Part shown: positions 8,050 through 31,879 of the stretch, one piece after another
Layout of the letters: each line of letters opens with the position of its first letter
Numbering within the stretch: the stretch's first letter is position 1
Source of the DNA: a virus
Direction: 5' to 3' (one strand)
Length of the DNA: 64,000 bases
Virus record (IMG/VR): IMGVR_UViG_3300046808_001301
Notes under the pieces: model-generated
Told to the model about the DNA's origin: nothing
The model's input: the letters and a program-made list of their open reading frames with translations, nothing else
Databases searched by the model: none
Program-made: the position numbers and the translations under genes

Positions 8050-9018
8050 ATGTCAATCGCTACAAACCTCAAAAAAAGAACCACGAGCTTAGCAGCTGCT
8101 GCTTTAACTAAAGGAAAAAATGTAACCCCTCGTATTAAAACAACCAGCTTGACGGAGCTTGAGTTAACGTTTGACGTCTCAATGTCTAGCCCAGAAAACG
8201 TAGATGATACAAATCGTTTATCAGTTTCTTTTGTTAATGGCAAAACTGGAGTAATTTATTATAAAGCTGAACCTCCAAGCACAGAGAGCGAAGCTTATAT
8301 TCCAGCAACAATGACATTGTTTGTTAATAATGAGGTGCATGCGGTTGTTGACTTTTTCTCTGACAGAATCGGTGACCCTTTTGCTCTTTCAATTTACGGC
8401 TTTACTCCACAAGAAGGTCCTCAAACAGGTACTTTTAAGCGAAACGTTTTCCAAGTTGACGGAAAGTTTACAGATGGGGATTTGTTTTTTAATATTATTG
8501 TGCCAACAGCTGTTCCGACACCGACAGCCACAATTGAACCAACATCAACTCCTCTTCCTACGCCAACACCTGAGCCAACTCCTGAGCCTGAGCCAACAGC
8601 AACTCCATGGCCGACTGAAACTCCATGGCCGACTGAAACTCCATGGCCGACTGAAACTCCGTGGCCAACCGAAGTTCCTCCAACGGAAGTTCCTCCAACA
8701 GAAGTTCCTCCAACGGAAGTTCCTCCAACAGAAGTTCCTCCAACTCCGGTTCCTCCAACTCCGGTTCCTCCAACGGAAGTTCCTCCAACGGAAGTTCCTC
8801 CAACGGAAGTTCCTCCAACAGAAGTTCCTCCAACTCCGGTTCCTCCAACGGAAGTTCCTCCAACAGAAGTTCCTCCAACGGATGTTCCGCCAACTGAAGT
8901 TCCGCCAACTGAAGTTCCGCCAACTCCAGTTCCTCCAACTGATGTTCCTCCAACTGAAGTTCCGCCAACTGAAGTTCCGCCAACTGAAGTTCCTCCAACT
9001 CCAGTTCCAGAGCCATAA
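8050..9018 (+). CDS. putative structural protein with mucin-like Pro/Thr tail
   Basis: ~150 aa globular domain followed by PTETPW and PTEVP repeats; TAAATA 7 nt upstream. Confidence 0.75.
8600..9012 (+). repeat. coding tandem repeats: 18-nt unit about x4, then 15-nt unit more than x20
   Basis: ACTCCATGGCCGACTGAA and CCAACNGAAGTTCCT units, differing mostly at synonymous positions. Confidence 0.95.
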
Positions 9019-9056
9019 TTCCAAATAACGTATGAGTTTTTGGATAAGTAATTATA

Positions 9057-10379: not shown

Positions 10380-10383
10380 TTTT

Positions 10384-12144: not shown

Positions 12145-12152
12145 ATAATACT

Positions 12153-12902
12153 ATGGCGTTAACAACAGGATTTCAAGTACCATACGGATTTCAGCCAACA
12201 GTTGCTGTTCCAGCAGATGCTTGGTCTGGTCCATACGAAGGGATTACTATAGCTGGAGCACTTACTGCAGCAAATTTAGCTGTTTCTCCGGCTATTAGAT
12301 TCAAATCTCTTGAAGTTCGATTACTTGTTAACGGAGTTTCTCAAAAATACTGGTACAAAAATGGAATAACAGACGGAGATTTAGTTCCTTTTGACATTGA
12401 TAGATATGCAGCGGTTTCTACAAAATTAGAAGCAGCTTCTGCTAGCTGGGATTCTGTTTATAGTTCTGTAAACCCAATTAGTGCAAATTGGAATTCGGTT
12501 TATAGTTCCGTAACTGCAGTCAGCGCAAATTGGGACTCTGTTTATAACTCTGTACATCCAGTTAGCGCAAATTGGGACTCTGTTTATAGTTCTGTAAACC
12601 CAATTAGTGCAAATTGGAATTCGGTTTATAGTTCTGTAAATCCGATTAGCGCAACTTGGAATTCGGTTTATTCTACTGTACAAACAATATCTGGCGGTCA
12701 ATATGCTCCAATTAGAAAATTCGACATACAGGATGATGGGTTTACTACCTATTCTGGAATCGCATTATACGGTACGTACGACAATATAGCTGGTTGGAGA
12801 ATAACTAGACTAAAAACAACTCTTAGTGGAACGGTGTCAAGCAATCAAGTTGCAATAAACGCTGTATGGACTGATAGACAACAGATCACGACTTATACAT
12901 AA
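12153..12902 (+). CDS. putative fibre protein with 14-aa SANWDSVYSSV repeats
   Basis: Six 14-aa repeats; TAAATA 5 nt upstream. Confidence 0.65.
   Translation: MALTTGFQVPYGFQPTVAVPADAWSGPYEGITIAGALTAANLAVSPAIRFKSLEVRLLVNGVSQKYWYKNGITDGDLVPFDIDRYAAVSTKLEAASASWDSVYSSVNPISANWNSVYSSVTAVSANWDSVYNSVHPVSANWDSVYSSVNPISANWNSVYSSVNPISATWNSVYSTVQTISGGQYAPIRKFDIQDDGFTTYSGIALYGTYDNIAGWRITRLKTTLSGTVSSNQVAINAVWTDRQQITTYT
12436..12680 (+). repeat. 42-nt coding tandem repeat about x6
   Basis: AGTGCAAATTGGAATTCGGTTTATAGTTCTGTAAACCCAATT-type units. Confidence 0.9.
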
Positions 12903-12919
12903 GTATAAGCTAATATAGA

Positions 12920-15904: not shown

Positions 15905-15913
15905 ATAATAGTT

Positions 15914-16195
15914 ATGCAAACAACAAATCCGATTGAAGATAACGGACACGTATATCCATTGTACAGCGCCAGTTTAGCAATTAGTTCTCTTTACAAAAAT
16001 AATCAATTCGAGGCGTATACGTCACTAAGATTAGTACCAACAAGATTGGACGAACAAGGTAACGGGATAACGCTTGAGGAAAAAGACAAGTCAATTGCAA
16101 TTGGGACAGTAACTAATATTTCTGGACCTGAACAAGAAGCAATGCAAGAAATTTATCAAGCTGTACAAAAATACATTATTGCTAAAGGTTTATAA
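15914..16195 (+). CDS. small protein within the fibre cassette (possible adaptor or chaperone)
   Basis: 93 aa ORF; TAAATA 6 nt upstream. Confidence 0.65.
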   Translation: MQTTNPIEDNGHVYPLYSASLAISSLYKNNQFEAYTSLRLVPTRLDEQGNGITLEEKDKSIAIGTVTNISGPEQEAMQEIYQAVQKYIIAKGL

Positions 16196-16198
16196 CAA

Positions 16199-19100
16199 AT
16201 GGCTTTAATAACGTCACCATTAGATATTACTGGCTGTCAGCTTTGGTTAGATGCTAATCAAGGAGTCTTGGATCAATTTGGCAATCCTGTGACCGCTGAC
16301 GGAACTTCTATTGGAACTTGGCGAGATCAAAGTGGCAACAACAATCACGTAAGCTCTAGTAGTGGCACTAGGCCTACTTACAGAACAAATATTAGAACTT
16401 CTCCTGAAAAATATAGCAATGTAGTAAGATTTGGAGGTAATGGGTTGCTTGCTACAGGAGACGTATTAGCGTTAGGAACTAACCACGCTTTACTGTTTGC
16501 TGTTATTAAAAATACAGTTGCTCCGACTTTTAATGCTCAACACATCATGTCTAAGAGCCGACCTGGTTCTGTTGGTCAGTATTTTATTAGTAGAACGTCT
16601 CCCGTAGACGGATCCATCGCCAACGGTTTGTTGGGGTTTGTGTGGTCTAATGGGAATATGTACACAACTTTATCCAACACGTGTTCTGACTACACGATTG
16701 TTTGCTGGAACGTTTTAAGAAATCAATCAGTCAATGGACCAATGAAAATGCGTGCTAATAGATTTCAAAATAGCACCGACGCTGGTGGAGGAGACAACGG
16801 ATTTAATGCAGTTCTTTCGTCCAGGTTTTGTATTGGAGGATGTAACGATTCTACAGGCTTTGCTGACAATTCCGATCCTGAATATTATTTTAATGGAGAT
16901 ATTTGCGAGTGTGGAGTATATATTCGAAATACCCCATACACTGATCACGAACTTAGACGTTTAGAGGGGTATCTTTATAATAAGTGGTTTTCCTCAACTA
17001 ATCCAGTAGTTTTTAATTTAAAAGGATGGTTTGACGCTGCAGATTCTAGTACTTTGTTTCAAGACAGACTTGCAACAACTCCTGCAATTATAACTAGCCC
17101 CCAAAAGCAACCCGTTGGTTGTTGGAAAAATAAAGCTCTAGACGGTTACGGAAATTTTACTGGGATTGTCGGACAAACAGTTTCAGCGCTGCCCAGTGCC
17201 GTAGTTAGCTCTTACAACGGTTTGTCTGCTATAAGATTTAATGGACTAGCATCTCCTCTTACATTAACATATTTAAGTCTTTCGGCTCCAGATCAGACAA
17301 CAGCAGGAGGATTTAGACATCAACAACAAACAGCAATTGTCGTTGTTGCTCCTCATAGTTCAAATTTTGTTGATAGAGCTAGAATTTTAGGGTCCAATAG
17401 AACTATTACTGGTTCTAACGATGCTACAGCCGGGTTTACTCCTTTTGTTCAATTTGGGACAGCAACTACAATAGCTTCTCTGATTGATAACGGTAGTAAT
17501 GCAGCTGTGCAAGCAAAGCTAGCAGAATTCAATATACTTACGAACAGAGCAAATAATACAGTAGAACTTACAAATACCAGAAACAGCCAATTAACAGCTT
17601 ATCAGCAAAACACTAGTTTTACAGGCAAACTTTCTTCGTATGGATTTAGACTAGGAGCAAACATTGGTGTTAACGGAATTAACACAGCTCCCACGGGAAC
17701 GCAGTATAATGGAGATATTTCAGAAGTATTAATATATGATCGGTTTTTAACAAACGCAGAATGTCATCAAGTTGAATACTATCTTGCTAAAAAATGGAAT
17801 ATTCCTGAAGCTAAATTCACTTATGCTATACGAAACGGAAATTGGTCAGATGATGCCACGTGGTCAACTAACATTGTTCCGACTCTTAGTTCAGATGTAT
17901 ATTCTAATGGATTTAACGTAACTATTGATCAAAACATAATAGAGGAGGTTCGAACTCTAAGAGGAACTCCTCCTCCCGCATACCCTTCTTTATCGTTAGC
18001 TAACAATGGCTCGTTTTTACTCAATCAGCCTTACACAATAAACATTGCACCTAGTAGCGTTAATCACTTTACAATTGTAGCTGGCACCGTTCCTGGGTTA
18101 GATTTAAACGTTTCTACTGGTAGTGTACACTTAACAGGAAACATTATTTCAGGAACAACAACCACTGCTTACGGTTTAATACAAAGAGGCACTTCTCCTT
18201 TAACAGTATACGGAAAAGTTATTCCAAATCAAGCCATTGGACTTTATAATTTAGCTGGAACTTCTGTAACTATAACCCAAACGTTATCTGGAGGAGCTGT
18301 AGATGACATATACGGGGTATACAATCAAGCTCCGTTTTGTAATATTAGTGTATTAAGCGGAGTAACTGGAGGAACAGGTACTAGGAGTGTAGGAATATCA
18401 AGCGTCTCGACCGGAGCTCTTACTCTTTCGGGAAGAATTTTAGCTGGAACGGGGTTATCAGCAGCTGCTGTGGTTAGTTCTGTAACTACTACAATTGCTG
18501 TTACAGGAGATGTAACCGGAGGCCCAAATACCAATACTTCAGGCATTTTATGTTTGTCTTGCGAAGACATTAACATTTTAGGAGTAATTTCAGGAGGTTC
18601 TGGACTATCAGCGTGCGGAGTAAACATTCCTTATACTAAAAACATATTTTTATCAGGAGCTAGCTCAGGAGCAATTGTAAGAGGAGGAACAGGAGAATCT
18701 ACTCACGGGTTATATAATAATACAGCAAACAATATAACCGCATATGGAATTATAAGTGGTGGTACTTCTCGATACTCTCGAGGCATCAATTCTTTTTATG
18801 CTAATAATTTATTTTTACAAAGAGGAGTTTTAGGAGGAACTTTATCAGCTACTAGTGGCTTTTATAACCTCACATCCAACTCTTTGTTTGTTAGTGGAAA
18901 TATTGTAGGAGGCAACAACACTCTTTCTACAGGTGTTACTACACTAACTACTAGCTCAATTAAAGTAATTGGAAACATAACTGGTGGAACAATGTTGTCC
19001 TCGTTTGGCTTATTAAACGACGCAACAAACACAATAGAAATTTCCGGAAACCTAACAGGAGGATCAGGAGCTAATTCAAGAGGGCTGCACTCTAATGTGG

Positions 19101-20536
19101 CTACAACCTCAGTCATAATTTCAGGAAATGTTACGGGAGGAAGCGCATTTGAAGCTCACGGCGCTATGTGTCCTATTACGACGTCTGTCTCCGTAACAGG
19201 AAATATTATTGGAGGATCTGGAGGAGGATTTGGTATTTTGTGTCTTTCTGCAGCTCCGTCTATATTCGTATTAGGAGACATACGGTCAGGCGGAAATACA
19301 GCATTTGTCGTGCGTCCCACAAATCCCGCGTCCTATTCCAATATAACTGTTATTGGAAACATACAAGGCATTGGAGCAGGAAACGGAGTTCTTAACGAAT
19401 CTACGGGAAATTTAACCGTAATTGGCAATGTAATCGGTGGAGCAGGAACCAGCATACAAAACTTGTCGTCAAACGTTGTATACATATCAGGAAGCGTATC
19501 AGGTGGAAGTGCGGGAGTTGGACTATACGACAGACTTGCTCAATCTATTACCATTGTTGGCTCAATTTCTGGAGGAACAGGAGCTGCTGGATATGGTTTA
19601 AGATTGTCAAGTCCAAATAGTTCTACGGTAAATATTTCAGCAACGGATATTTCGGGCCGAGTAGGAGTAGCTATATACAACGATTTAAATCTTCTTGCTA
19701 ACTATGCTGCAACAGGGTTTGGACCAGGATCTGAACCCGTCAGCAATATTTACATAAATTGTCCGCTAATACGTTCAGGAAGCAATTCAGGAGCTATAAG
19801 CAGCGTTAACACAGGACAAGGAGCTGATATATACATAACAGGAAGTGTATATGGCTCCGGAGGAAATCCTACTATTGTAAACGCCAATAGATGGGGAAAA
19901 ATTAACATTAAAGGTGACGTAATTGCTGGGTTAGCTCCAGCTCCTATAGGTTATGTTATTGAAAATTTAAGCAATGCTACACTTCAAGTTACAGGTTCTG
20001 TCATTGCAACAAACAACCAAGGAGCAATTAGAGGAGTCTCCCTCGGAGCAATTCATGAAATTAATGGCCCGATTATCAACGCTTCAAATGGCAGACAAGC
20101 TCTTTGGTTAAGAACGTATTATCATTCTGCTAAGAATTTTAATTCTTTTATTAGATACGGAACGAACACAGGAGGAACGTTAGACTTTTACGCTCCAGAA
20201 GGATATCCAGTTTCTCAAATTCCACCAGTTTCTTCTGTAGCAGCAGGAACCGTTTATGCTGTTATGAGTGCTCTTTCAGGCATGCCGTTTATTAACGTTT
20301 CTCAACTTACAGGAACAATGATCGTTCCTTCAGTAAGCTCTGTTAAATTTGGCGTACCAGTTGGAATTGACACAGGAAAAGTAAAAGCAACCAAACTAAA
20401 TTTAATCGATATGTTAAATATAACTACTGAAAGTGGATTATTGACATCTGATGGCACCTATGGCAAATTACTTGCAAATATTTGCACCAAATCAACAGCA
20501 TTATCAGGAGCTAGTCTCTTAGCAGGAGCACGTTAA
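16199..20536 (+). CDS. double LamG plus Gly-rich beta-helix protein
   Basis: Two W[LF]DA...GDI.E LamG units followed by ~25-aa GN[IV].GG repeats. Confidence 0.75.
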   Translation: MALITSPLDITGCQLWLDANQGVLDQFGNPVTADGTSIGTWRDQSGNNNHVSSSSGTRPTYRTNIRTSPEKYSNVVRFGGNGLLATGDVLALGTNHALLFAVIKNTVAPTFNAQHIMSKSRPGSVGQYFISRTSPVDGSIANGLLGFVWSNGNMYTTLSNTCSDYTIVCWNVLRNQSVNGPMKMRANRFQNSTDAGGGDNGFNAVLSSRFCIGGCNDSTGFADNSDPEYYFNGDICECGVYIRNTPYTDHELRRLEGYLYNKWFSSTNPVVFNLKGWFDAADSSTLFQDRLATTPAIITSPQKQPVGCWKNKALDGYGNFTGIVGQTVSALPSAVVSSYNGLSAIRFNGLASPLTLTYLSLSAPDQTTAGGFRHQQQTAIVVVAPHSSNFVDRARILGSNRTITGSNDATAGFTPFVQFGTATTIASLIDNGSNAAVQAKLAEFNILTNRANNTVELTNTRNSQLTAYQQNTSFTGKLSSYGFRLGANIGVNGINTAPTGTQYNGDISEVLIYDRFLTNAECHQVEYYLAKKWNIPEAKFTYAIRNGNWSDDATWSTNIVPTLSSDVYSNGFNVTIDQNIIEEVRTLRGTPPPAYPSLSLANNGSFLLNQPYTINIAPSSVNHFTIVAGTVPGLDLNVSTGSVHLTGNIISGTTTTAYGLIQRGTSPLTVYGKVIPNQAIGLYNLAGTSVTITQTLSGGAVDDIYGVYNQAPFCNISVLSGVTGGTGTRSVGISSVSTGALTLSGRILAGTGLSAAAVVSSVTTTIAVTGDVTGGPNTNTSGILCLSCEDINILGVISGGSGLSACGVNIPYTKNIFLSGASSGAIVRGGTGESTHGLYNNTANNITAYGIISGGTSRYSRGINSFYANNLFLQRGVLGGTLSATSGFYNLTSNSLFVSGNIVGGNNTLSTGVTTLTTSSIKVIGNITGGTMLSSFGLLNDATNTIEISGNLTGGSGANSRGLHSNVATTSVIISGNVTGGSAFEAHGAMCPITTSVSVTGNIIGGSGGGFGILCLSAAPSIFVLGDIRSGGNTAFVVRPTNPASYSNITVIGNIQGIGAGNGVLNESTGNLTVIGNVIGGAGTSIQNLSSNVVYISGSVSGGSAGVGLYDRLAQSITIVGSISGGTGAAGYGLRLSSPNSSTVNISATDISGRVGVAIYNDLNLLANYAATGFGPGSEPVSNIYINCPLIRSGSNSGAISSVNTGQGADIYITGSVYGSGGNPTIVNANRWGKINIKGDVIAGLAPAPIGYVIENLSNATLQVTGSVIATNNQGAIRGVSLGAIHEINGPIINASNGRQALWLRTYYHSAKNFNSFIRYGTNTGGTLDFYAPEGYPVSQIPPVSSVAAGTVYAVMSALSGMPFINVSQLTGTMIVPSVSSVKFGVPVGIDTGKVKATKLNLIDMLNITTESGLLTSDGTYGKLLANICTKSTALSGASLLAGAR

Positions 20537-20537
20537 C

Positions 20538-22097
20538 ATGCCTAGTAAATACGCTACAAGAAATGGAAGTTTTCATGATACTGGAGTAAATTCCCTATGG
20601 TATTCAGCATCAGCAGCCAACGCTCCTGGAGGTTATGTTCAAGTGGAACCTCCCGTTGCTGGAGATGATGCAATTTCTAACGGATATTTTGTTACTATAA
20701 CAAATGATATTAGATGCAACAATCTTCACAATGGTAGACGCTACGGCTTTGCAAATCCAGGAGGAGGGTTCGTTTTAAATACTTGGACAAACTCAGTTAG
20801 TGTTACAGCAAACGTTTTGGGAACAAAATTAATTAATAATACTACTGCTCTGTCCTGCGTAGGAACAAATACAGCGACGCTGGTCGGATTTGTGCGAGCC
20901 CCGGAGTGCCCTACTCCCAATTCGTTGGGATCGAACTACGGAGTATCTGTTGTCAATCGGAATACAAATACATTTAATATGTTCGGAGAAATTACATCTC
21001 CAGACATAATAGGAAGCGATTTAAACGGTGGAAATGCTTTTGTTCACTCTGCTTCCGGAACGCTAAATCTTTATGGCAATATACGTTCATCCAATCTTAG
21101 TCGATCTTACTGGCACGACAGATACATTCGTTTATTAACGCTTAATTCGGGAACATTTAATCTATATGGCCACATAATAACAACTGGGGGTTGGTCAGGA
21201 ATAGACAATATGTCTTTAGTTGTATCAGGCCCCTCCACTACTACAATTTTTGGAAATATTTACGGAAACGACACTAACGGCGACGCGCTCTATCCTGTAA
21301 ACATCAATTCCAGTACTGGGCCAGTAACGATGACTGTTAACGGAAACGTATACGCAGGTGTTACACAAAGTGGAGCAGCTATATACTCAGCAAATCCTCC
21401 TGCCAACACCACCTTGACTGTTAACGGCAATCTAATAAGTGGAAGAAACGGTTATTGTGTAGATTTTAGAGGGACTAATGTTGGAACAATTAGAGTTAAC
21501 GGGAACATATTAACTCAAACTGCTGTAGGAATTCATTATACAAATTCAAACGTATTTGTTAACGGCAATGTAGTAACAACCAACATAGAACCCGCAATAT
21601 ACGGAACACCTGATAACACAGGAGTAACTACCATTAATGGAAATTTACTCGGTACTCCGCAAGGTATTCCTGCTATTCAAGCTCCGTTTGTAAGATTTGC
21701 TTCAAACGTATACCAGCCTTATATATCTCATGCAAAAACTCCATGGGAACAGGATCCAAATGTCTCTCAAAACAAGTTTGCCGACGTTCAAACATATTAT
21801 ACGCTAGACGCGCTTTCTGAATTTTCCCTGCCACCAATAAGCTCGGTAAGAGCTGGTCATGTATATGCAAACAGCTTATATACTGGAACTTGTCAGATTC
21901 CTTTAACTTCTGATGTGTATTATGGAGTTAGGTACGATGCAGATGGCACCGTTATGGGAACAGCCACTGTAAATCCAATAGATTTCTTTTTGATTAATCC
22001 TGCGGCACTATTAGTACAAAATAATACACTAGGACAAAAGTTAGCAAATGCAGCAACAATTGATGTTTTCGGGAACACAGTTGCTAGTTTAGGATAA
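20538..22097 (+). CDS. beta-helix protein (paralogue without LamG)
   Basis: xGN[IVL] repeats and the shared C-terminal module. Confidence 0.7.
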   Translation: MPSKYATRNGSFHDTGVNSLWYSASAANAPGGYVQVEPPVAGDDAISNGYFVTITNDIRCNNLHNGRRYGFANPGGGFVLNTWTNSVSVTANVLGTKLINNTTALSCVGTNTATLVGFVRAPECPTPNSLGSNYGVSVVNRNTNTFNMFGEITSPDIIGSDLNGGNAFVHSASGTLNLYGNIRSSNLSRSYWHDRYIRLLTLNSGTFNLYGHIITTGGWSGIDNMSLVVSGPSTTTIFGNIYGNDTNGDALYPVNINSSTGPVTMTVNGNVYAGVTQSGAAIYSANPPANTTLTVNGNLISGRNGYCVDFRGTNVGTIRVNGNILTQTAVGIHYTNSNVFVNGNVVTTNIEPAIYGTPDNTGVTTINGNLLGTPQGIPAIQAPFVRFASNVYQPYISHAKTPWEQDPNVSQNKFADVQTYYTLDALSEFSLPPISSVRAGHVYANSLYTGTCQIPLTSDVYYGVRYDADGTVMGTATVNPIDFFLINPAALLVQNNTLGQKLANAATIDVFGNTVASLG

Positions 22098-22115
22098 GTA
22101 TTTGTAACTTTTGAT

Positions 22116-25100
22116 ATGGCTGCTTTAACATCTCCATTAGATATTCCAGGTTGCATTGTTTGGTTAGACGGTAACGACAAAACTACTATGTTTTTGTTGA
22201 GTACTGGCCTAAACCAAGTGCAAACCGACGGAGATGCAGTCGGGTATTGGAAAAATAAAGCTGCTTGGAATTCTGACTTGCTTTCACTCAATACCCTCGG
22301 AACAACGACTCCAGGATTAAGTTCTTTTACGCATTTTCCTGGAACGTATCAAACAGCAAGGCCTGTATTTAAAGTTCAATCAAACAATACTTCTATACTT
22401 AATTTTGATGGTTCTGATGCTTTAACGAGTTATTTTAATTTTCCTGTTCCAGCTCCTGCAAATAGCAGAGGGCTTACAACGTTTGTTACATTGAGCACTG
22501 GAAGTCCCGTGGCAAATTCCAGAACATACACTCACACAATTAATGGCTTACAAGATTCTGTTGCAGGAGTCGGAAATGTTATTCCGGCTTTTGGGCCAAC
22601 TACCTCTGGTGTTATAGGTTCCCAAACTTCGCCGACTGGCTTGACTACTACTCAAACGCTTCGGTGGTCTCAATTTGAAACATACGTGTGTCATCATGAC
22701 GGAACAAAATTTACTTCGTATCTGAATAGTTTGCGATCAACAACTCCTAATTACGCTACTCATAGTTTAGACATGACGAACGTAAGTATTTCTAGAGTTG
22801 GGGCAGGCATCGGAGCTGCTGGAGCAACTTTTGTTAATCCTGCAAGAATTAACGTGGCAGAAGTTATTGAGTATGATCGAGCATTAACTGATTCGGAAAG
22901 AATTAAAGTAGAACTTTATTTGAATAGAAAATGGAATGTCAATCAAAGAAGAACGTACGCAAAACAAAGCGGTAATTGGTCTGATCCAAATACGTGGATA
23001 GAAGAATTGGTACCTTTGACGTCAGACAATGTATTTAGCAACACATACAACGTAGATATTGATCAAAATATATTGGTTCAGGATTTGAGAAACGTCGCTC
23101 TTGCTCCTTATGTTCCTACAGGAGGAGGAATGTTTACTATTTCTGCTCCAGTTAACGTTGCAACATTAAGCGGGTCTGGGTTTGTTTCAAACGGAGTTGT
23201 GCCTTTATTAAGCAGTTCTGCTTCAACTGGGACAGTTAATTTGACAGGACATATTGTTGGAGGTTCATTAGCCAATGATTGCTATGGTTTTCGTCATATT
23301 GGAAACGCTAGCGTCAATTTGTCTGGAAATGTCACTGCTGGAAATACTACACTATCTAGTTATGGGCTTTTATTTTATGCAGACATTGAATCTCCTAGCA
23401 ATTTAACAATAAACGGAAACGTAAGTGCCGGCAATGCTTCATCAAACTACGGAGTATCATATACAGGAGGAGGAGACGTAACAGTTACGGGGTATGTCTC
23501 AGCAGGAGGAGCCGTTGTTGGGGCCGATATGTGTTACGGATTAACGTGTATTGGGAACGGTTCAGTATACGTAGCAAGTGGAATATCTGCTGGATTTGGA
23601 AATATTTGTTACGGAGCATATCTCTCAGGAGGACAAACTAATTCAAGCGTTACTATAGGCTCTAGGGGAATTACAGCTGGTCCTGGAGCTTTTTCATTCG
23701 GTCTATACAACGCTGGAGAAACCAGGTCTATTTCGATAACAGGAAACGTAGCTGCTTCTACTGGTTCGGGATCTTACGGTTTAAACAATGCTGGAAACGG
23801 AAACATTTCAATACTAGGAAATGTAGCTGCTTCTACTAATTTGGGATCTTATGGTTTAACTAACATTGGAAACGGAAACGTTTCATTAACAGGAAACGTA
23901 ACAGCTTCTACTGGTTCTGGATCTTATGGTTTAACTAACATTGGAAACGGAAACTTATCAATAAGAGGAAACATAACTGCTTCTACTGGTTCTGGATCTT
24001 ATGGTTTAACCAACACCGGAAATGGAAATACAACATTAATTGGAGCAATAGTTGGTTCGACTAATACTCATGGAGCTGAATGCAGTGGAACTGGTGTAGT
24101 GTTTCTTAGCGGCAGAGCTACTGGTGGCGCTGGTTCAAATTCTTACGGTTTAAGGTGCCGCAGCACGGAATTGTCGGCTATAAGCGCATTTCCTTTAGGC
24201 ACCGCAGTATTTACTGGAGGTACAGGAACCAATTGTTACGGTTTATTGTTTGGTGGTAGTGCTGCTCCATTGTACGTAGAAGGAACGATTACTGGCGGTT
24301 CAGGAAGTGGGTCTCATGGAGCTTATATTGCAAACAGCACTTCTGTTAAATTGTTTGGGAACTTAAACGGAGGTACAGGATCTTCAATTGGTGTTTATGA
24401 CGCTCAGAGCTCAAGCATTTCGTTAAGTGGAGGAGCTGCTGGAGGATCAGTATCAGGAGCGTATGGACTACATTTAGCGTATAACCCTTCGGTTATCAAC
24501 ACAAATTTATACATAAACGGAGGACAGAATCGAGACATTACTGGAGGAAACGGAACCTCTACACATGGAGTTTACATTAACCGTGTATCTGATTTAACAG
24601 TAGAGAGGATACTGAATATTAGAGGTGGAATTGGTGGAAATTTTTGTTATGGCATGTATTGGGCTTTTCCTTTATCAAGCTGTAACATTCAAGCATCAAG
24701 TATTAGAGGCGGAACCGGAGGTACTAATAATCACGGATTAACAATTGATGTGGATTGTACTGCAAACATAACAGGCAGCGTATTTGCTACTACTTGGGGC
24801 CACGGAATTTACGTAGGTTCTACCTATTCGTATGTGTCTGCTAATACTTTCTTTTCTCCAAATCTTATTGTTAGAGGAAACGTGTCAGCTTCATCTGCTT
24901 CTGCTGCAGCATACAGCGCAATATACAACTCTCACAGCGACGTATACGTTGCTGGCAATGTTACAGGAGGAGCGTTCAGTGGAGCTTACGGTATTAATAA
25001 TGTAGGAGGAAACGTTGACGTAAGAGGCAACGTTAATGGAGGCCCTGCTGCTGGAGGCCACGGAATATATGCTTCTTCTGGAACTGAGCGTTCTACAACA

Positions 25101-26468
25101 AACCTTATTGTTAGAGGTAATGTTACAGGTGGAACTGTATTCAACAGCAACGGAGTGGTTAACGAAACGAATAACGGAACATTTCAGCTTTTTGGTAATC
25201 TTATTGCTCGTCCATCCTCAGGAGCAGTTGCTCTTCGTTCTGGTCATTGGAGTTCAGGAACTTATGGTATGCTTGCTAAAAACTATATTTGTGGAAACGT
25301 AATCAATGCTCCAGATGGAGGATCAGCAATGACAGCATTCCATTGCCAATTTTATCCTCCTGCTTCTTTTGGCTCCTACATTACATATTCCTCTGGATAC
25401 AATACCGTTTTAGACATGGTTTTGCCAGATGGGTTTGGGATGCCGGAACCATGGGCAGTTCGTTCCGGAGTTTCTTATGCAAATGACACTCGCGTGGGAA
25501 CCTGTGTCGTTCCGGATCCTAGATCAGTTAAATTAAGGACACCTGTTGATAACACGGAAGGACTTGCAATTTTGGATCCAATTGATTTATATAGCATTTC
25601 AACAGCTGTTCTCACAGCGGAAAACACACTAGGAAAATTGCTGTCCAATAGCTTAACTACCGAAGTGGCAGGAAACCTCGTTGCTAGCTGGAGCGAAGAT
25701 TTTGGAAGCTATAGTCCAACAATGATTTCTGGTTTGCAGCTTTGGCTGGATGCTTCAGACAGTTCAACGTTATTTGATGCAACTGTTGGTGGCAATTTGG
25801 TAACTACTGACGGATCAGCTGTAGCAAGGTGGGCCGATAAATCCGGAAACAATAGGCATGCTATTCAAACAACGTCTACAGCAAGACCGCTACTCAAAAC
25901 AGGCATCCAAGCTGGAAAAAACGTCTTACGTTTTGATGGTACGAACCATTATTTTAATATTAATAGCATAGCTGCGTTCTTTGGTTCCTCCCATACAATT
26001 TTTGCGGTTGCTCAAACTAATACAGGAGGAAAAAATGCTACATCAGAAGCATACCAAACTGTTATAGCAGGCACAGGATTTCATCAAACAATTTCATTCA
26101 GAGGATATCCGCTCGCTAATATCGTTCATGCGGAAGTGTGGAATTCAACTCAAAGCCAGAATGCGACATCAACTCGTCCATATTCTGTAGGTAGCTGGAT
26201 AGTCGCAACCAGACGCGTTACTGCTTCCACAGCGTCAACTGTTCAGCTGTTTTTAAATAAAACAGCAGGAATTCAACAAGCTCTTTCGTCCGGCACCGTA
26301 TTGAGAACTCCTGTAGAAGCGCGTATTGGATGCGCTCAGACAGTTGGATCATTTGATTGGTTTTTAAATGGACAAATTTCAGAAATTTTAATTTATAATT
26401 CTGCTTTGACTCCAGGCCAATACCAGAGTATTCAGTCATATCTCCAATCTAAATGGAATATTGTTTAA
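22116..26468 (+). CDS. LamG - beta-helix - LamG protein
   Basis: N-terminal WLDG and C-terminal WLDASD...GQISEILIYNSALT LamG units around GNV repeats. Confidence 0.75.
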   Translation: MAALTSPLDIPGCIVWLDGNDKTTMFLLSTGLNQVQTDGDAVGYWKNKAAWNSDLLSLNTLGTTTPGLSSFTHFPGTYQTARPVFKVQSNNTSILNFDGSDALTSYFNFPVPAPANSRGLTTFVTLSTGSPVANSRTYTHTINGLQDSVAGVGNVIPAFGPTTSGVIGSQTSPTGLTTTQTLRWSQFETYVCHHDGTKFTSYLNSLRSTTPNYATHSLDMTNVSISRVGAGIGAAGATFVNPARINVAEVIEYDRALTDSERIKVELYLNRKWNVNQRRTYAKQSGNWSDPNTWIEELVPLTSDNVFSNTYNVDIDQNILVQDLRNVALAPYVPTGGGMFTISAPVNVATLSGSGFVSNGVVPLLSSSASTGTVNLTGHIVGGSLANDCYGFRHIGNASVNLSGNVTAGNTTLSSYGLLFYADIESPSNLTINGNVSAGNASSNYGVSYTGGGDVTVTGYVSAGGAVVGADMCYGLTCIGNGSVYVASGISAGFGNICYGAYLSGGQTNSSVTIGSRGITAGPGAFSFGLYNAGETRSISITGNVAASTGSGSYGLNNAGNGNISILGNVAASTNLGSYGLTNIGNGNVSLTGNVTASTGSGSYGLTNIGNGNLSIRGNITASTGSGSYGLTNTGNGNTTLIGAIVGSTNTHGAECSGTGVVFLSGRATGGAGSNSYGLRCRSTELSAISAFPLGTAVFTGGTGTNCYGLLFGGSAAPLYVEGTITGGSGSGSHGAYIANSTSVKLFGNLNGGTGSSIGVYDAQSSSISLSGGAAGGSVSGAYGLHLAYNPSVINTNLYINGGQNRDITGGNGTSTHGVYINRVSDLTVERILNIRGGIGGNFCYGMYWAFPLSSCNIQASSIRGGTGGTNNHGLTIDVDCTANITGSVFATTWGHGIYVGSTYSYVSANTFFSPNLIVRGNVSASSASAAAYSAIYNSHSDVYVAGNVTGGAFSGAYGINNVGGNVDVRGNVNGGPAAGGHGIYASSGTERSTTNLIVRGNVTGGTVFNSNGVVNETNNGTFQLFGNLIARPSSGAVALRSGHWSSGTYGMLAKNYICGNVINAPDGGSAMTAFHCQFYPPASFGSYITYSSGYNTVLDMVLPDGFGMPEPWAVRSGVSYANDTRVGTCVVPDPRSVKLRTPVDNTEGLAILDPIDLYSISTAVLTAENTLGKLLSNSLTTEVAGNLVASWSEDFGSYSPTMISGLQLWLDASDSSTLFDATVGGNLVTTDGSAVARWADKSGNNRHAIQTTSTARPLLKTGIQAGKNVLRFDGTNHYFNINSIAAFFGSSHTIFAVAQTNTGGKNATSEAYQTVIAGTGFHQTISFRGYPLANIVHAEVWNSTQSQNATSTRPYSVGSWIVATRRVTASTASTVQLFLNKTAGIQQALSSGTVLRTPVEARIGCAQTVGSFDWFLNGQISEILIYNSALTPGQYQSIQSYLQSKWNIV
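23735..24030 (+). repeat. 78-nt (26-aa) coding tandem repeat about x4
   Basis: GNV[AT]ASTGSGSYGL[NT]N.GNGN units, near-identical at DNA level. Confidence 0.85.
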
Positions 26469-26764: not shown

Positions 26765-26796
26765 AAAGCCCTTTGCTGTTGCAAAGGGCTTTTTTT
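26765..26796 (+). terminator. intrinsic terminator
   Basis: AAAGCCCTTTGC-TGTT-GCAAAGGGCTTT hairpin plus U tract. Confidence 0.9.
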
Positions 26797-26812: not shown

Positions 26813-27790
26813 ATGAGTTTAGTATTAGTAACTGGGTGTGCTGGGTTTATAGGTTCAAGAGTATGCAGCATGTTGATCGAAGATGGACATGAAGTTGTCG
26901 GAATAGACAATCTCAACAATTATTATGATCCGAGTCTTAAACAGTACCGTTTACGTAGGTTACGGTTTTTTGGTAACAAATTTAAGTTTGAGTTACTAAA
27001 CATTGAAAACAAAAACAAGCTAATTGAGTTATTCAAAACTCATTCGTTTGAAACGGTATACAATCTAGCAGCTAGAGCAGGAGTACAGAATAGCTTAAAA
27101 GATCCGTATATTTATTTGTCAACAAATGCTGTAGGAACACTAAATTTGCTTGAAGCAATGAAAGAAACCAACGTCAAAAAAATGGTGTTGGCCTCAACTT
27201 CTTCATTATACGCAGGTCAACAAATGCCGTTTACGGAAGATCTTGCAGTAAACACTCCTCTATCTCCATATGCAGCTTCTAAAAAAGCAGCAGAGTTGAT
27301 GGCTTATAGCTACCACCATTTATATGGATTAGATATTTCCGTAGTAAGGTATTTTACGGTATTTGGTCCAGCAGGTCGACCAGATATGAGCATTTTTAGA
27401 TTTATTAAATGGATTGATGAAGGGCGTCCTCTTGAAATTTTTGGAGACGGTTCTCAATCAAGAGATTTTACATACGTTGATGATATAGCTAGAGGAACAA
27501 TTCAAGCTTCAAAATCGTTAGGGTATGAAATTCTAAATTTAGGAGGAGGAAAGTCTCCAAAAAGTTTAAATTGGACGATTGATTTTATTTGTAAGGAACG
27601 CAACCTTCCTGTTCCAGCAAGATCAACAAAAGACTTTCATGTAGCTGACATTGTTGCTACTCAAGCTAATATATCTAAAGCTAACCAGTTAATTGGTTAT
27701 GAACCAAAAATTTCTTTTGAAGAAGGGTTATTAAACACTCTTCAATGGCATAAAGAGAACAGTCATTGGCTTAAAAATATCAGAATCTGA
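26813..27790 (+). CDS. NAD-dependent nucleotide-sugar epimerase (UDP-glucuronate 4-epimerase-like)
   Basis: GCAGFIG, NLAARAGV, YAASK, GPAGRPDM, RDFTYVDD. Confidence 0.9.
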   Translation: MSLVLVTGCAGFIGSRVCSMLIEDGHEVVGIDNLNNYYDPSLKQYRLRRLRFFGNKFKFELLNIENKNKLIELFKTHSFETVYNLAARAGVQNSLKDPYIYLSTNAVGTLNLLEAMKETNVKKMVLASTSSLYAGQQMPFTEDLAVNTPLSPYAASKKAAELMAYSYHHLYGLDISVVRYFTVFGPAGRPDMSIFRFIKWIDEGRPLEIFGDGSQSRDFTYVDDIARGTIQASKSLGYEILNLGGGKSPKSLNWTIDFICKERNLPVPARSTKDFHVADIVATQANISKANQLIGYEPKISFEEGLLNTLQWHKENSHWLKNIRI

Positions 27791-27801
27791 AAAATCTGAT
27801 G

Positions 27802-27829
27802 TTGTTTAATCTCATTTTTAGTATAAAAT
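27802..27829 (+). promoter_or_regulatory. sigma70-type promoter of the QueD-like operon
   Basis: TTGTTT-16 nt-TAAAAT, 7 nt before ATG at 27837. Confidence 0.55.
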
Positions 27830-27836
27830 CAACTCA

Positions 27837-28181
27837 ATGACAACCACTGTTATTATTACACTCCAATACGAAGCTTTTCACAACTGGCAGGGAGTCAAAG
27901 AGGCTCTTCCTGACAACCCAGAAATCCATTTCCTCTTTGATAGACACAGACATTTGTTTTTTATTACGCTAGAAAAACACGTAACTCATGATGATAGAGA
28001 CGTGGAAATCATTCTTTTTAAACGCAAAGTGCAAGATTATCTTGAAACAAAGTATGGCAGGCCAGGAGAACTTGGATCAAGGTCATGTGAAATGCTTGCA
28101 GAAGAACTTCTTAAGAAATTCGATTGCGAAACAGTGCAAGTACTTGAAGACAACGAAAACGGAGCTAAAGTATATAAATGA
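27837..28181 (+). CDS. QueD/PTPS-like T-fold protein
   Basis: EAFH, HRH metal-binding His motif, SCEMLA and V.ED.ENGA motifs. Confidence 0.65.
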   Translation: MTTTVIITLQYEAFHNWQGVKEALPDNPEIHFLFDRHRHLFFITLEKHVTHDDRDVEIILFKRKVQDYLETKYGRPGELGSRSCEMLAEELLKKFDCETVQVLEDNENGAKVYK

Positions 28182-28603
28182 TTACCTTTGTCTGCGGTCA
28201 GCTTTGTTCCGGAAAAACCAGATATGCTAAAGCTATGGCTGATTCGGTGAACGCGTTGTTCATTGAAGTCGGGGATATCGTTCGTGAGATAACTCAGACA
28301 ACCGATCGAGCACAACTTCAAGATACAAAAAACCTTTTGGATGAGATCGTGGAGCGACTCATACGCAAAATGCCTTTGTGTGATGTAAAGGAATACGTCG
28401 TTTGCGGAGTTAGGCAGAAAGAAATACTGTTACAATTTCCGGATGCAACGATGCTGTGGATTGAGTGTCCTAAAAAGGAACGTAAAAAGCGTTATAAAGA
28501 ACGAGCTCGACAAGGAGATACTACTCCTTTTAAAGAAGCGGAACAAGGTGATATCGAACTAGGCATCTTAGAAGTTAAACAATACATTTTCGACAACAAA
28601 TGA
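28178..28603 (+). CDS. P-loop nucleotide (NMP/dNMP) kinase-like protein
   Basis: GQLCSGKT, VGDIVRE, VCGVR, R..RY..RAR lid region. Confidence 0.7.
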   Translation: MITFVCGQLCSGKTRYAKAMADSVNALFIEVGDIVREITQTTDRAQLQDTKNLLDEIVERLIRKMPLCDVKEYVVCGVRQKEILLQFPDATMLWIECPKKERKKRYKERARQGDTTPFKEAEQGDIELGILEVKQYIFDNK

Positions 28604-29391
28604 AATTCTTTTGTATTCCGCCAAACAACCATCTCGACATGATGGACAACGGCGATTGGTATTTTGCTCTTTGTCATCACTATATACAAGATAAAAAGTA
28701 TAGAGAATATTTCCTTAATTTAAGAAAAGCAAAACCTAATGCTTTTATTTTGCTAGATAATGGAGCAGCAGAGCATAGTCTCGTAACAGAAGATGTTTTA
28801 ATCGAAGCTGTTATGGAATTACAACCAAACGAAGTAATTGCTCCAGACGTTTTGTTTGACAAAAAACAAACACTTAAAAATCTTGAGTCGTTTATTAATA
28901 AATTGATCAAAGCTCAAATGCTAGACAAGGTTAATTTGTTCGGTTGTCCACAAGGATTAACAAAACAAGAATGGGTTGAATGTTATTTTCAAATGGCTCT
29001 TAATCCGTTCGTTAAAACAATTGGATTAAGCAAAATTGCTGTTCCGAAATGTTGGAATAACGCAGTTGATGACAAGATGATTTCTCTGTCTCGTAATCAA
29101 TGCGTTAAAGAACTACAGCAAACGTTGTTGTTAACTAAGCCTCTCCACTTGCTTGGTATGGGGGAACACAATGAGTTCGACTTCTACTTGAGAAACAAAA
29201 TTAAAAACATACGCAGTTCGGATAGTTGTTACACAATACTTGCTGCAATGAATGGAATTGATTTTGAGACAGGAAATACATCAAGAATTCCTACAACCAA
29301 TGCTTATTTTGATGTTACTCTCACGGACGAACAACAAGAACTTGCAAAGAAAAATATAAACTATTTAAAAACCAAATATAAAGAAATATGA
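28600..29391 (+). CDS. tRNA/DNA-guanine transglycosylase-fold (DpdA-like) protein
   Basis: LLDNGA, PDVL, GCPQG, IGLS, LHLLGMG and RSSDS match the TGT-fold order of motifs. Confidence 0.6.
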   Translation: MKFFCIPPNNHLDMMDNGDWYFALCHHYIQDKKYREYFLNLRKAKPNAFILLDNGAAEHSLVTEDVLIEAVMELQPNEVIAPDVLFDKKQTLKNLESFINKLIKAQMLDKVNLFGCPQGLTKQEWVECYFQMALNPFVKTIGLSKIAVPKCWNNAVDDKMISLSRNQCVKELQQTLLLTKPLHLLGMGEHNEFDFYLRNKIKNIRSSDSCYTILAAMNGIDFETGNTSRIPTTNAYFDVTLTDEQQELAKKNINYLKTKYKEI

Positions 29392-30059
29392 AAAACGAAC
29401 TTCTAATTGTTACATGCACAGAAGCTAAAACAGACAAAGAATTTAGTCAAAAGCCTTTGTATGCTAGTCTTCAAAAACAATTTGAAAGCAATTCTAATGT
29501 GTCTTTTTATATTTTCAAAGACAACAAAAGAGGTCTTTCGGAGTGCTATAATGAAATTCTACAAAATCAAACAAACATCAATAAAACAGTTTTGTTTGTT
29601 CATGATGATGTTGTGCTTGATGATATATTTTTATACGAAAAGCTTACTCAGAGCCCGTATTCAATTACAGGCCTTGCTGGCGCTAAAACCTTCAATAAGC
29701 GCGCTGACAAGCTTGCCTGGCACCTTGCCTCAGATAGGACTGATTACGTTGGTGAAGTAACACACTTCCATGAAGGCAAAATCTGGACAACTGTCTTTGG
29801 ACCGACTCATTCAAGAGCGTTAACAATTGACGGTTTGTTTATTTCTTGCAAAGTAAACGACCTAAAGCAAAAGGAATTGCTGTTTGATACCAATTTTAAT
29901 TTTCATTTTTATGATATTGCTTTTTGTTTACGAGCAAATGAAAAGAAAGTCAGCTGTGGGGTGCTTCCAATTAAAGCAACACATTATGGAATTGGAGATT
30001 CAATGTTGACTCCCCAATGGGAAGAAGCTAATATCGAGTTCAAACAAATTTACGCATGA
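29388..30059 (+). CDS. GT2-like glycosyltransferase
   Basis: LSECYN, FVHDDV, GLAG, DGLFI, FHFYD..FC motifs. Confidence 0.8.
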   Translation: MKNELLIVTCTEAKTDKEFSQKPLYASLQKQFESNSNVSFYIFKDNKRGLSECYNEILQNQTNINKTVLFVHDDVVLDDIFLYEKLTQSPYSITGLAGAKTFNKRADKLAWHLASDRTDYVGEVTHFHEGKIWTTVFGPTHSRALTIDGLFISCKVNDLKQKELLFDTNFNFHFYDIAFCLRANEKKVSCGVLPIKATHYGIGDSMLTPQWEEANIEFKQIYA

Positions 30060-30595
30060 TTGTAACACCTGAACAACTTAGTCAAACAAGCATTTTAACT
30101 CAAGAAGGAGTTTATGATTGCTGTTTAATCCAGCAACGCTTTTCATACAAGCTTTTTGGCAATTCAGTTTCCTCATTGGGAGATGTCATAACATTCCGAG
30201 CTCCAATTAATATTGGTCCTTTATTCTTTGAAAATTCTATCGTCATAGCAGCAGAACTTCCGAATGCTTCTATGTTTGCTGGAACCTGCTTTGCTAGACT
30301 TTATGCAGCTCAGCTTGGATCAATTTTGTCCTCAATGATCAACGAAGAATATACTGTTGATGAAAGCTGTATTTTTTCTGGAGAAGCTCAAGCTAGTCTA
30401 TCAATGATCAACCAGGTAAAAGATTCAGTATTGTTGCACATTGTTTTTCCGTTGAAAGAAGGAAATACGAAAGAAACTTTTTCTTGTCTTAAATTAGACG
30501 AAGAAAAACTACTTGGATTTGAAATTAGTGCTGTTGAAGCATTTCGACAACTTACTCGTAGCATTTTTATAGAGACAAGACGTGACAATTTTTGA
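30056..30595 (+). CDS. DUF366-like protein (lipoate/biotin-ligase fold), diverged
   Basis: YD...I..RFSY..FG.....GDVITFRAP N-terminus and later SLSM...S...HI segment. Confidence 0.5.
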   Translation: MIVTPEQLSQTSILTQEGVYDCCLIQQRFSYKLFGNSVSSLGDVITFRAPINIGPLFFENSIVIAAELPNASMFAGTCFARLYAAQLGSILSSMINEEYTVDESCIFSGEAQASLSMINQVKDSVLLHIVFPLKEGNTKETFSCLKLDEEKLLGFEISAVEAFRQLTRSIFIETRRDNF

Positions 30596-30932
30596 TTATA
30601 TTAAGGATATAGTCGTTACCAAACGTGGGGATTTGCCTTTAGAACAATATGTACCGTTCTTAATCAATCGTTGGTTGAGTTTTGTTAATCCTACACTGTG
30701 TAGCGCTATTAACCAAATGAATAACAAGACGTTATTGGAAGACAAAGAAATGCACTATAAAACATTAATTGCTTTGTTTCCTAAGATGAAGTATTGTCCT
30801 AAGATCAATTACGTCAAAAAAGTCAAAGAAGCGGAGTCAACTGAGAACAAAATGATAGGAGTTGTTGCTCAGCAACTAGAAATCTCTAAACGAGAAGCAG
30901 AACAATTACTCGAAGGAAGGTCTGCTAATTGA
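30582..30932 (+). CDS. gp62: clamp loader small subunit (T4 gp62-like)
   Basis: IFDYIKDI...YVPFLINRWLS...HY..L and C-terminal IS.REA motifs. Confidence 0.75.
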   Translation: MTIFDYIKDIVVTKRGDLPLEQYVPFLINRWLSFVNPTLCSAINQMNNKTLLEDKEMHYKTLIALFPKMKYCPKINYVKKVKEAESTENKMIGVVAQQLEISKREAEQLLEGRSAN

Positions 30933-31451
30933 TTCAATCTCGTTTAAAAACGGAATTACGGACTCTCCTTTTAACGGTTGTTGCTTTTGACCGTTGTGCT
31001 TTTTAACGAATTCGTCTTTCCACGTTACATCATACTGCTCGTCTTCGTTAATTTCGTTGATTTCTCCGTTGCTTAACTTACGAAGCATCCAAACTTGTTT
31101 GTCGTGTTCATAAGGACCAGAAATAGCAGAAGGTCCAAACTCCAGCTTGCGGTTTTCGTCCATTACTTGGCGAAAAAGTTCCTTGAAAGAAGATAAACTT
31201 TCCTTTACTTCTTTCTTTTTGCCTTTGTCAGATAAAGCTTTTTTCATTGACTCCTTTTTATCCCCGTCTTCATCAGCATCTAGATAATCGGGCTTGTCTT
31301 GTTTGGCTTCTTTAACGGCCATTTTTTTGTTTTTCTTTTTGCACTCTTCGCAGTTATCACACTTGCGTCCCTTTGCTGCCGCTTGACAAACATGCTTCTT
31401 TTCCATAAGAACGTAAGCTTCTTGCAACATTTCTAAATCTTTGAATACCAT
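30906..31451 (-). CDS. charged protein, probably head-internal
   Basis: KPDYLDADEDGDKKESMKKA motif, Cys cluster, SFKELFRQVMDE; TAAGTA 8 nt upstream. Confidence 0.65.
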   Translation of the reverse strand: MVFKDLEMLQEAYVLMEKKHVCQAAAKGRKCDNCEECKKKNKKMAVKEAKQDKPDYLDADEDGDKKESMKKALSDKGKKKEVKESLSSFKELFRQVMDENRKLEFGPSAISGPYEHDKQVWMLRKLSNGEINEINEDEQYDVTWKDEFVKKHNGQKQQPLKGESVIPFLNEIESISRPSFE

Positions 31452-31504
31452 ATACCCTTTACTTATCGTTGACTACAGAATTTTTCACGGTAATTACTTA
31501 CCAT

Positions 31505-31879
31505 ATGCATCCTGTATTACCTCGCGAAAACAACGGTCTTGCTGACCTTGATCCTTATTCGAACTGCCCACTTCCAGAAGATTATGAAATTACCGAACTT
31601 CTTGGAGATGTTATCCAATTGGTATATGCAGACACAGCAGAAGACGGCAAATCGCTTGTGCGTAACGGAATTATACTTCCTGAAGCAGTCGTTGAAAACA
31701 AAGCTTGGCGTGTAGGTAGGGTTATTATGGTTGGACCAAACGTCAAGCAAGTTAAAGCAGGACAACACGTTATTTTTCCAGGAGATAAAGGAATTAAAGG
31801 CATTCAACGAGACGGCAAATTAAACATCTTCCTTAATGAAGAAAGAATTTTCGGAATTTGTAAGCCTCAAACAAACTAA
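31505..31879 (+). CDS. groES: GroES-like co-chaperonin (start revised to 31505)
   Basis: LLGDVI, GIILP, GRVIMVGP.VKQVKAGQHVIF, LNEERIFG. Confidence 0.8.
   Translation: MHPVLPRENNGLADLDPYSNCPLPEDYEITELLGDVIQLVYADTAEDGKSLVRNGIILPEAVVENKAWRVGRVIMVGPNVKQVKAGQHVIFPGDKGIKGIQRDGKLNIFLNEERIFGICKPQTN

Follow-up and report, generated by a model that had tools for sequence, protein, structure and literature searches.

Gene content of the locus

The sequence analyzed here (the window) is a 64,000-nucleotide stretch of the IMG/VR virus record IMGVR_UViG_3300046808_001301, which belongs to a T4-like phage as judged by its major head protein, portal, gp31-like co-chaperonin and gp62. The locus of interest is a row of six open reading frames (ORFs) on the plus strand at positions 27837 to 30932, with junction overlaps of 4, 4, 4, 4, and 14 nt. 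An initial annotation, made from the sequence alone, had described six overlapping or coupled genes and had assigned them as QueD-like, kinase, tRNA-guanine transglycosylase (TGT) fold, GT2 glycosyltransferase, DUF366-like, and gp62, and had read them as a possible new hypermodification of DNA with 7-deazaguanine. The overlaps and all six fold assignments held in the present analysis. The first three genes (27837 to 29391) form a cassette for DpdL, a P-loop kinase-like protein, and DpdA3, which by homology is a further DpdL/DpdA3 system of a known kind in a T4-like phage, with 2'-deoxy-7-deazaguanine (dDG) as its predicted product. The last three (29388 to 30932) belong to a resident syntenic block, GT2-(DUF366)-gp62-gp31, that is common to a wide group of T4-like phages.

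The reference for the cassette is Cellulophaga phage phiST, in whose DNA every G is replaced by dDG (302,000 dDG per 10^6 nt) and whose cluster comprises FolE, QueD, QueE, a MazG-like protein, DpdL (CGPG_00067), CGPG_00066, and DpdA3 (CGPG_00065) (Cui, Hutinet et al., Nucleic Acids Research 2023, PMC10516641). The DpdL, P-loop, and DpdA3 genes occur in the same order in both phages, and the proteins are 43%, 29%, and 37% identical, respectively. This homology bears out the earlier view of the locus as a 7-deazaguanine system for phage DNA that combines a TGT-fold transglycosylase with a QueD-like protein. It does not support the suggested newness, since the first three genes correspond to a published module that yields plain 7-deazaguanine.

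DpdL and DpdA3

DpdL (27837 to 28181, plus strand, 114 aa) is a putative QueD paralogue and the proposed decarboxylase of 7-carboxy-7-deazaguanine (CDG), assigned from its motif, its phiST homology, and phrog_17812. Residues 33 to 41 read LFDRHRHLF and fit the LxxxHRHxF motif that separates DpdL from QueD, which has CxxxHGH (PMC10516641). The match to CGPG_00067 spans 113 aa (E = 5e-26), the protein has all 16 of the residues that are invariant in the family, and the DpdL hidden Markov model (HMM) matched the DpdL proteins of six other phages. In comparisons with QueD itself, neither a Pfam PTPS (PF01242) match nor a PDB profile match was obtained, and hhalign against phage QueDs aligned just the C-terminal 36 columns, with a probability of 23%. 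For the phiST DpdL, an HHpred probability of 99.9% has been given for the same relation (PMC10516641).

Several other arrangements of DpdL were seen. It forms the C-terminal domain of longer proteins in Chryseobacterium phage MA9V-3 (L002:5647-6528, 293 aa) and Vibrio phage Bakedbeans (gp176, L017:4218-5369, 383 aa), the N-terminal parts of which gave no Pfam match. The T4-like cyanophage Synechococcus phage BUCT-ZZ01 (L019:450-5357) has the order QueE, xanthine-guanine phosphoribosyltransferase, QueD, FolE, two unknown genes, and DpdL, which places a base-to-nucleotide enzyme inside a DpdL cluster. ThyX is inserted between DpdL and the kinase in a close relative (L006:445-1086), and the insert at the same junction in L009:7290-9526 consists of a 548-aa unknown protein and a 197-aa protein with a citrate-lyase-ligase-like C terminus.

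The 263-aa DpdA3 (28600 to 29391, plus strand) is a DNA-guanine transglycosylase with a minimal TGT fold, as deduced from phiST homology, its structural model, and its invariant residues. It is 37% identical to CGPG_00065 over the full length (E = 1.5e-49) and 42% identical to the MA9V-3 protein. Tblastn against the phage records matched only Cellulophaga phiST-like phages and MA9V-3, and the family profile also reached immuto, Youna2, BSTP10, and CP220; 348 relatives were found at E <= 0.001 in the protein collection. The AlphaFold model (predicted local distance difference test score [pLDDT], 92.5) gave TGTs for all 50 of its 50 best Foldseek PDB matches (TMq, 0.51 to 0.67; E down to 1.6e-7), in agreement with the TGT fold first proposed. 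When the family profile was compared to PDB sequences, the single match was a weak one to the bacterial DpdA 7UI4, in which the S-x-D region is aligned. Residues D53, D83, R165, H183, G186, S206, and D208 are invariant among 11 DpdA3 sequences from seven lineages and are kept here as H183-x-L-G and S206-x-D208 together with the remaining positions; we infer a catalytic role for them. The protein is predicted to insert a 7-deazaguanine into DNA.

Across lineages, the neighbors of DpdA3 include DNA polymerase, ThyX, MazG-type hydrolases, and phosphoribosyltransferases (PRTases). A complete T4-like genome, G008, has DNA polymerase B, DpdA3, a DpdN-like formyltransferase, and an AAA_28 kinase in a row (L125, G008:157474-160914), which is the arrangement of the fdPreQ1 phage immuto 2-6A in another phage group. 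In Bacillus phage BSTP10 (L020:4339-5687), a DpdA3-like gene within a Gat-QueC/QueD/FolE cluster is flanked by a "thymidylate kinase" and DNA polymerase I; the relatives are BSTP5, BSTP8, BSTP12, BSP7, and BSP19, and the annotation of the gene differs among the records of this group (polynucleotide kinase, NadR, integrase, or hypothetical).

The P-loop kinase

Between DpdL and DpdA3 lies a 141-aa homologue of CGPG_00066 (28178 to 28603, plus strand) that resembles nucleoside monophosphate (NMP) kinases. It matched AAA_18 (E = 5e-9) and also AAA_33, and its profile against the PDB matched the AdkA-like structures 3LW7/3H0K (E = 8e-6) and the UMP/CMP kinase 1QF9 (E = 1.6e-3); its scores were under the NCBIfam cut-offs for any named kinase. 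Members of the family have in common a Walker A motif (here GQLCSGKT), a GDIVR motif, and a lid rich in Arg, the invariant residues being G7, S11-G12-K13, G32/V35-R36, R79, R105, and R109.

The distribution of this family is narrow. It is directly upstream of DpdA3 in 19 of the 20 IMG/VR loci that hold it, and no fusion of the kinase to DpdA3 was seen among these 20 loci. Besides this clade, members occur in MA9V-3 and in a 79-kb contig from a different lineage, where the order is QueE-FolE-...-DpdL-kinase-DpdA3. In phiST, CGPG_00066 was described as lacking homologues in other deazaguanine phages and hence unique to that phage (PMC10516641), yet a conserved homologue adjoins DpdA3 in the window, in MA9V-3, and in other contigs. 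At the exceptional locus (L146:3268-8128), the kinase occurs without DpdA3 and has an unknown 234-aa gene on one side and a split gene for DNA polymerase III alpha on the other.

Other P-loop kinases lie near DpdA3 elsewhere. A protein annotated as thymidylate kinase overlaps the start of DpdA3 in BSTP10 and Youna2, CP220 has an HD+AAA_33 protein upstream and an AAA_28 protein downstream, and AAA_28 is found two genes downstream in immuto 2-6A and G008. A single kinase family serving all DpdA3 lineages was considered and rejected, as no homology was found by HMM and hhalign comparison. An AAA_28 P-loop kinase also directly follows QueD-QueE in the relative G001 (G001:40411-41082; L028:411-1082), so that this clade, like CP220, has kinases of two types associated with the pathway.

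The kinase is read as a working partner of DpdA3. The suggestion in the initial annotation of a possible nucleotide-level step agrees with the NMP-kinase motifs and with the position beside DpdA3. Since the family is almost confined to the site upstream of DpdA3 and other kinases stand beside other DpdA3 genes, a nucleotide-level route stays in contention, and the kinases, DNA polymerase, ThyX, MazG-type hydrolases, and PRTases found beside DpdA3 fit a step in the nucleotide pool.

Precursor genes and conservation of the cassette

As had been noted for folE, queE, and queC, tblastn detected none of folE, queD, queE, and queC in the 64-kb window. Eight IMG/VR contigs carry the same gene row. 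One of these is G001, a complete 217-kb relative with terminal repeats whose DpdA3 is 65% identical. In G001, FolE lies beside gp32 and QueD-QueE about 60 kb upstream of DpdA3; QueC was not found in this complete genome. The left end of the window maps to about 90 kb of G001, from which FolE, QueD, and QueE would be expected to fall outside the window. In having FolE, QueD, and QueE but lacking QueC, G001 shows the genotype of phiST, and dDG is predicted as the base on that account.

Searches with DpdA3 recovered 8 IMG/VR contigs in which the cassette is conserved and searches with the kinase recovered 18, the two sets largely overlapping, and the identity of DpdL, the kinase, and DpdA3 across many contigs ranges from 52 to 95%.

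The GT2-(DUF366)-gp62-gp31 block

The 223-aa GT2 protein (29388 to 30059, plus strand) is a PF13712 (Glyco_tranf_2_5) glycosyltransferase-like protein; it scored 27.8 bits against a gathering cut-off of 27, and most of its relatives carry PF13712. An acidic DxD-type motif, H72-D73-D74, is invariant. Its gene is resident rather than cassette specific, and it follows DpdA3 in every close relative. Distant relatives of the protein are fused to GT41/TPR protein glycosyltransferases.

The 179-aa protein (30056 to 30595, plus strand) is, by its model and profile comparisons, a divergent DUF366 protein with a biotin/lipoate protein ligase-like fold, and it is an optional partner of GT2, its gene being absent in three of the eight close relatives that keep the cassette. 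The model (pLDDT, 87.5) had as its best Foldseek match the DUF366 structure 2DDZ (E = 3e-9; template modeling [TM] score, 0.72), followed by biotin and lipoate protein ligase (BPL/LplA) structures. A direct Pfam match, as the DUF366 assignment would have it, was not obtained: the PF04017 model did not match the 179-aa protein at an E-value limit of 0.1 or its G001 homologue at a limit of 10. The assignment instead came through intermediates, as the HMM of the 179-aa family matched the PF04017-positive neighbor of a GT2 homologue over its full length (E = 2.8e-33), and the protein-atlas score for DUF366 was 0.92. A BFVD fold search with the model gave weak lipoate-ligase matches only. The profiles of the GT2, DpdL, and 179-aa families gave no match among PDB sequences, and neither GT2 nor the 179-aa protein had a tblastn match in the set of 50,697 phage records. 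A literature search for DUF366 found no paper.

The row ends with a gp62-like clamp-loader small subunit (30582 to 30932, plus strand, 116 aa, GTG start; phrog_225, E = 3.4e-11), which is syntenic with the gp31-like gene at 31469 to 31879 in all relatives.

Distribution of GT2 and DUF366 relative to deazaguanine genes

A GT2 profile was run against 1.8 billion representatives and retrieved 1,437 clusters; gene contexts were then examined, and 80 IMG/VR loci with a GT2 homologue were compared. The DpdL-kinase-DpdA3 cassette is upstream of GT2 in 8 of the 80 loci, QueC in 24, and an AAA_28 gene, about 3 kb upstream, in 43; DUF366 follows GT2 in 42. All 24 QueC loci have DUF366, and in 22 of them QueC is within 1.7 kb of GT2. 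Of the 32 loci that have a nearby deazaguanine gene, 31 contain DUF366, versus 11 of the 48 that do not. One contig has the order AAA_28, a 263-aa protein, a primase-like protein, QueC, GT2, GATase, DUF366, and gp31, and another has GT2-DUF366; in the QueC-type genomes, DpdA3 is located elsewhere, adjoining DNA polymerase B. In related T4-like phages, loci L046 to L116 (e.g., L064:8632-11300 and L084:9234-11800) and the contig of P0257 carry QueC, GT2, sometimes GATase_6, a true PF04017 DUF366, and gp62/gp31, which puts QueC and its amidotransferase partner on either side of GT2. In seven of the QueC-GT2-DUF366 loci, GT2 and DUF366 are 580 to 950 nt apart, a distance that corresponds to the length of a GATase gene. 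The proximity of DUF366 and que genes mentioned in the initial annotation is therefore true of these phages. When the two traits were mapped on the GT2 tree, there were four changes in the deazaguanine trait and three in DUF366, giving two independent pairs (p = 1), which are too few events to show coupling.

Whole contigs were then examined for the pathway. The GT2-(DUF366)-gp62-gp31 row is present in G014 and G015 (both 100% complete, with terminal repeats), G007 (99%), and G016 (92%), in which no FolE, QueD, QueE, QueC, Pfam TGT, or DpdA3 was found; G007 also carries DUF366. Because the block occurs in genomes lacking deazaguanine genes, a glycosylated or acylated deazaguanine is not supported, and the proposal that all six genes form a single pathway was rejected. 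DUF366 was absent from ten of ten other deazaguanine phages and was likewise rejected as a general companion of phage deazaguanine clusters.

Proposed pathway and its alternatives

The locus is probably composite, with the DpdL-kinase-DpdA3 cassette placed upstream of the resident block and dDG made as in phiST. Following the phiST work, FolE, QueD, and QueE, encoded elsewhere in the genome, would convert GTP to CDG, DpdL would strip the carboxyl group from CDG, and DpdA3 would exchange guanine for 7-deazaguanine. In the virion DNA, all or most of the G positions would then probably be occupied by dDG, and the DNA would resist restriction. GT2 and DUF366 most likely form a separate unit with another acceptor. 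Our preferred, though tentative, reading of the kinase is that it phosphorylates a 7-deaza-deoxyguanosine nucleotide, in which case at least part of the replacement would take place in the nucleotide pool, ahead of replication.

Several points weigh against this proposal. All five junctions of the row overlap, which also fits a single functional operon. FolE, QueD, and QueE were seen in the relative G001 rather than in this phage's own genome, and no link was found by HMM and hhalign between this kinase family and the kinases of BSTP10, Youna2, CP220, and immuto. The evidence consists of gene identities, folds, order, conservation, and distribution across genomes, from which every chemical step has been deduced. 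The decarboxylase activity of DpdL is at the stage of a proposal for any member of the family, and expression of DpdL and DpdA3 in Escherichia coli gave no dDG (PMC10516641). The E. coli experiment left out the intervening P-loop gene, which offers a testable reason for its failure.

The alternative that comes nearest to the proposed nucleotide step is a strictly postreplicative one, in which DpdA3 would swap bases in finished DNA and the P-loop protein would be a DpdB-like, ATP-using helper or a pool enzyme that is merely nearby. This is possible, though less likely than not. TGT-family enzymes are known to act on polynucleotides. The bacterial DpdA needs ATP hydrolysis by DpdB for the insertion of preQ0 into DNA (PMC10164549), and the authors of the DpdA3 family work propose postreplicative insertion for all DpdA enzymes (PMC10516641). 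However, DpdB is a ParB-like NTPase, whereas the present protein, of 141 aa, has the fold of an NMP kinase and the motifs for NMP binding and the lid; a complete replacement of G would be hard to reach by repair-like exchange; and the clustering of kinases, MazG-type hydrolases, PRTases, ThyX, and DNA polymerase with DpdA3 recurs across lineages. That the cassette instead targets tRNA, in a queuosine-like manner, or is an inactive remnant is very improbable. While the TGT fold is common to the tRNA enzymes, the protein falls in the DpdA3 clade, in which those members that have been tested are from phages whose DNA is fully modified, and DpdL, the kinase, and DpdA3 keep all their family-invariant residues and recur in many contigs at the identities given above.

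Decoration of the deazaguanine or of its CDG precursor by GT2 and/or the ligase-fold protein, as the initial annotation had envisaged, would give a virion base heavier than dDG and not previously described. The ligase might, for example, adenylate the CDG carboxylate and couple an amine to it, or GT2 might add a sugar. The overlapping junctions, the constant position of GT2 after DpdA3 in close relatives, the QueC-GT2-GATase-DUF366 order in another T4-like lineage, the QueC genes upstream of GT2 in loci that all have DUF366, and the excess of DUF366 near deazaguanine genes all favor such a role. Carboxylic acids, of which CDG is one, are the compounds that the BPL/LplA fold activates. Set against this, GT2 is kept in the four pathway-free genomes (with DUF366 in G007), where the pair would have to act on a host-derived or different substrate, and DUF366 is dispensable in three of eight cassette-bearing relatives. 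Moreover, phiST makes dDG without GT2 or DUF366, none of the ten other deazaguanine phages has DUF366, dDG has no C-7 group to decorate, the fusions of distant GT2 relatives are to protein glycosyltransferases, and the GT2 tree yielded just the two independent pairs (p = 1). Decoration is thus judged unlikely. The closest precedent for a decorated base would perhaps be the vertebrate queuosine glycosyltransferases and GluQ-RS, which decorate a 7-deazaguanine nucleoside by means of a GT-A fold transferase or an aminoacyl-tRNA synthetase-like ligase. These enzymes act on the cyclopentenediol of tRNA queuosine, and dDG is without such a handle.

Comparison with known systems

Besides the gene order, the QueC-less precursor set of the complete relative is shared with phiST. 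In contrast to phiST, the present phage is a T4-like myovirus with a genome of about 200 kb, and its relative has the precursor genes at separate places. The cassette has no MazG-like neighbor and adjoins a GT2-DUF366 block that is absent from phiST. The transglycosylase belongs to the same subfamily as those of Campylobacter phage CP220 (dADG) and Flavobacterium phage immuto 2-6A (fdPreQ1) (HMM E = 1e-14 to 1e-17), and a P-loop kinase is within two genes of DpdA3 in these phages as well. They differ in their final bases and tailoring enzymes (QueC-type, DpdN, and QueF), and their AAA_28 or HD+AAA_33 kinases have no detectable homology to this one. The bacterial Dpd system is similar in pairing a TGT-fold DNA-guanine transglycosylase with an NTP-using partner (DpdA/DpdB; PMC10164549; PDB 7UI4), but its DpdB is a ParB-like ATPase, its DpdA is about 400 aa, and its modification is low, in contrast to the 263-aa minimal enzyme and NMP-kinase fold found here. 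The 179-aa protein shares its fold with DUF366 (PF04017; PH0223, PDB 2DDZ; TM score as given above) and with the biotin and lipoate protein ligases and is linked to PF04017-positive phage proteins by transitive homology, and it differs from DUF366 in that the Pfam model gives it no direct score.

With these assignments, the phiST type of dDG system extends to environmental phages of a T4-like group that is abundant. The orphan family DUF366, for which a structure has been solved, occurs frequently in T4-like phages, where it is the partner of a PF13712 glycosyltransferase. The link between the kinase and DpdA3 is the part on which a specialist could act; if the kinase does act on a 7-deaza nucleotide, the replacement of G would be partly prereplicative, against the published model.

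Surroundings of the locus

Megablast of the region against the 50,697 records of isolated phages gave no match and no near-identical relative. The row is preceded, at a distance of 46 nt, by a gene for an NAD-dependent sugar epimerase (26813 to 27790; Pfam, 2e-59). The sigma70-like promoter that the initial annotation had placed ahead of the row corresponds to a putative site in this 46-nt gap (27802 to 27829, plus strand), with TTGTTT at 27802 to 27807 and TAAAAT at 27824 to 27829, separated by 16 nt. The site is weaker than the initial annotation suggested: it scored under the threshold of a consensus scan, and promoter-like sites in the region were no commoner than in shuffled sequences. 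A GTTGC/T box with a TATA-type -10 element occurs at the same place upstream of the cassette in six of seven relatives. A putative, weak terminator-like hairpin of 9 pairs, 3 of them G-C, follows gp62 (30972 to 30996, plus strand).

A strong terminator hairpin (12 pairs and a T run) at 26765 to 26792 stands before the sugar-nucleotide epimerase gene, which among nine related contigs is present only in the closest (L004/L043). Farther upstream, about 18 kb of the window (8050 to 26468) consists of very large genes (994, 1445, 519, and 1450 aa) without a syntenic counterpart at this place in G001, of which mere fragments match distant parts of that genome. On the opposite strand, a 181-aa Lys/Glu-rich ORF (30906 to 31451, minus strand) shares 27 nt with the 3' end of gp62 and is conserved at 41 to 61% identity in three relatives.

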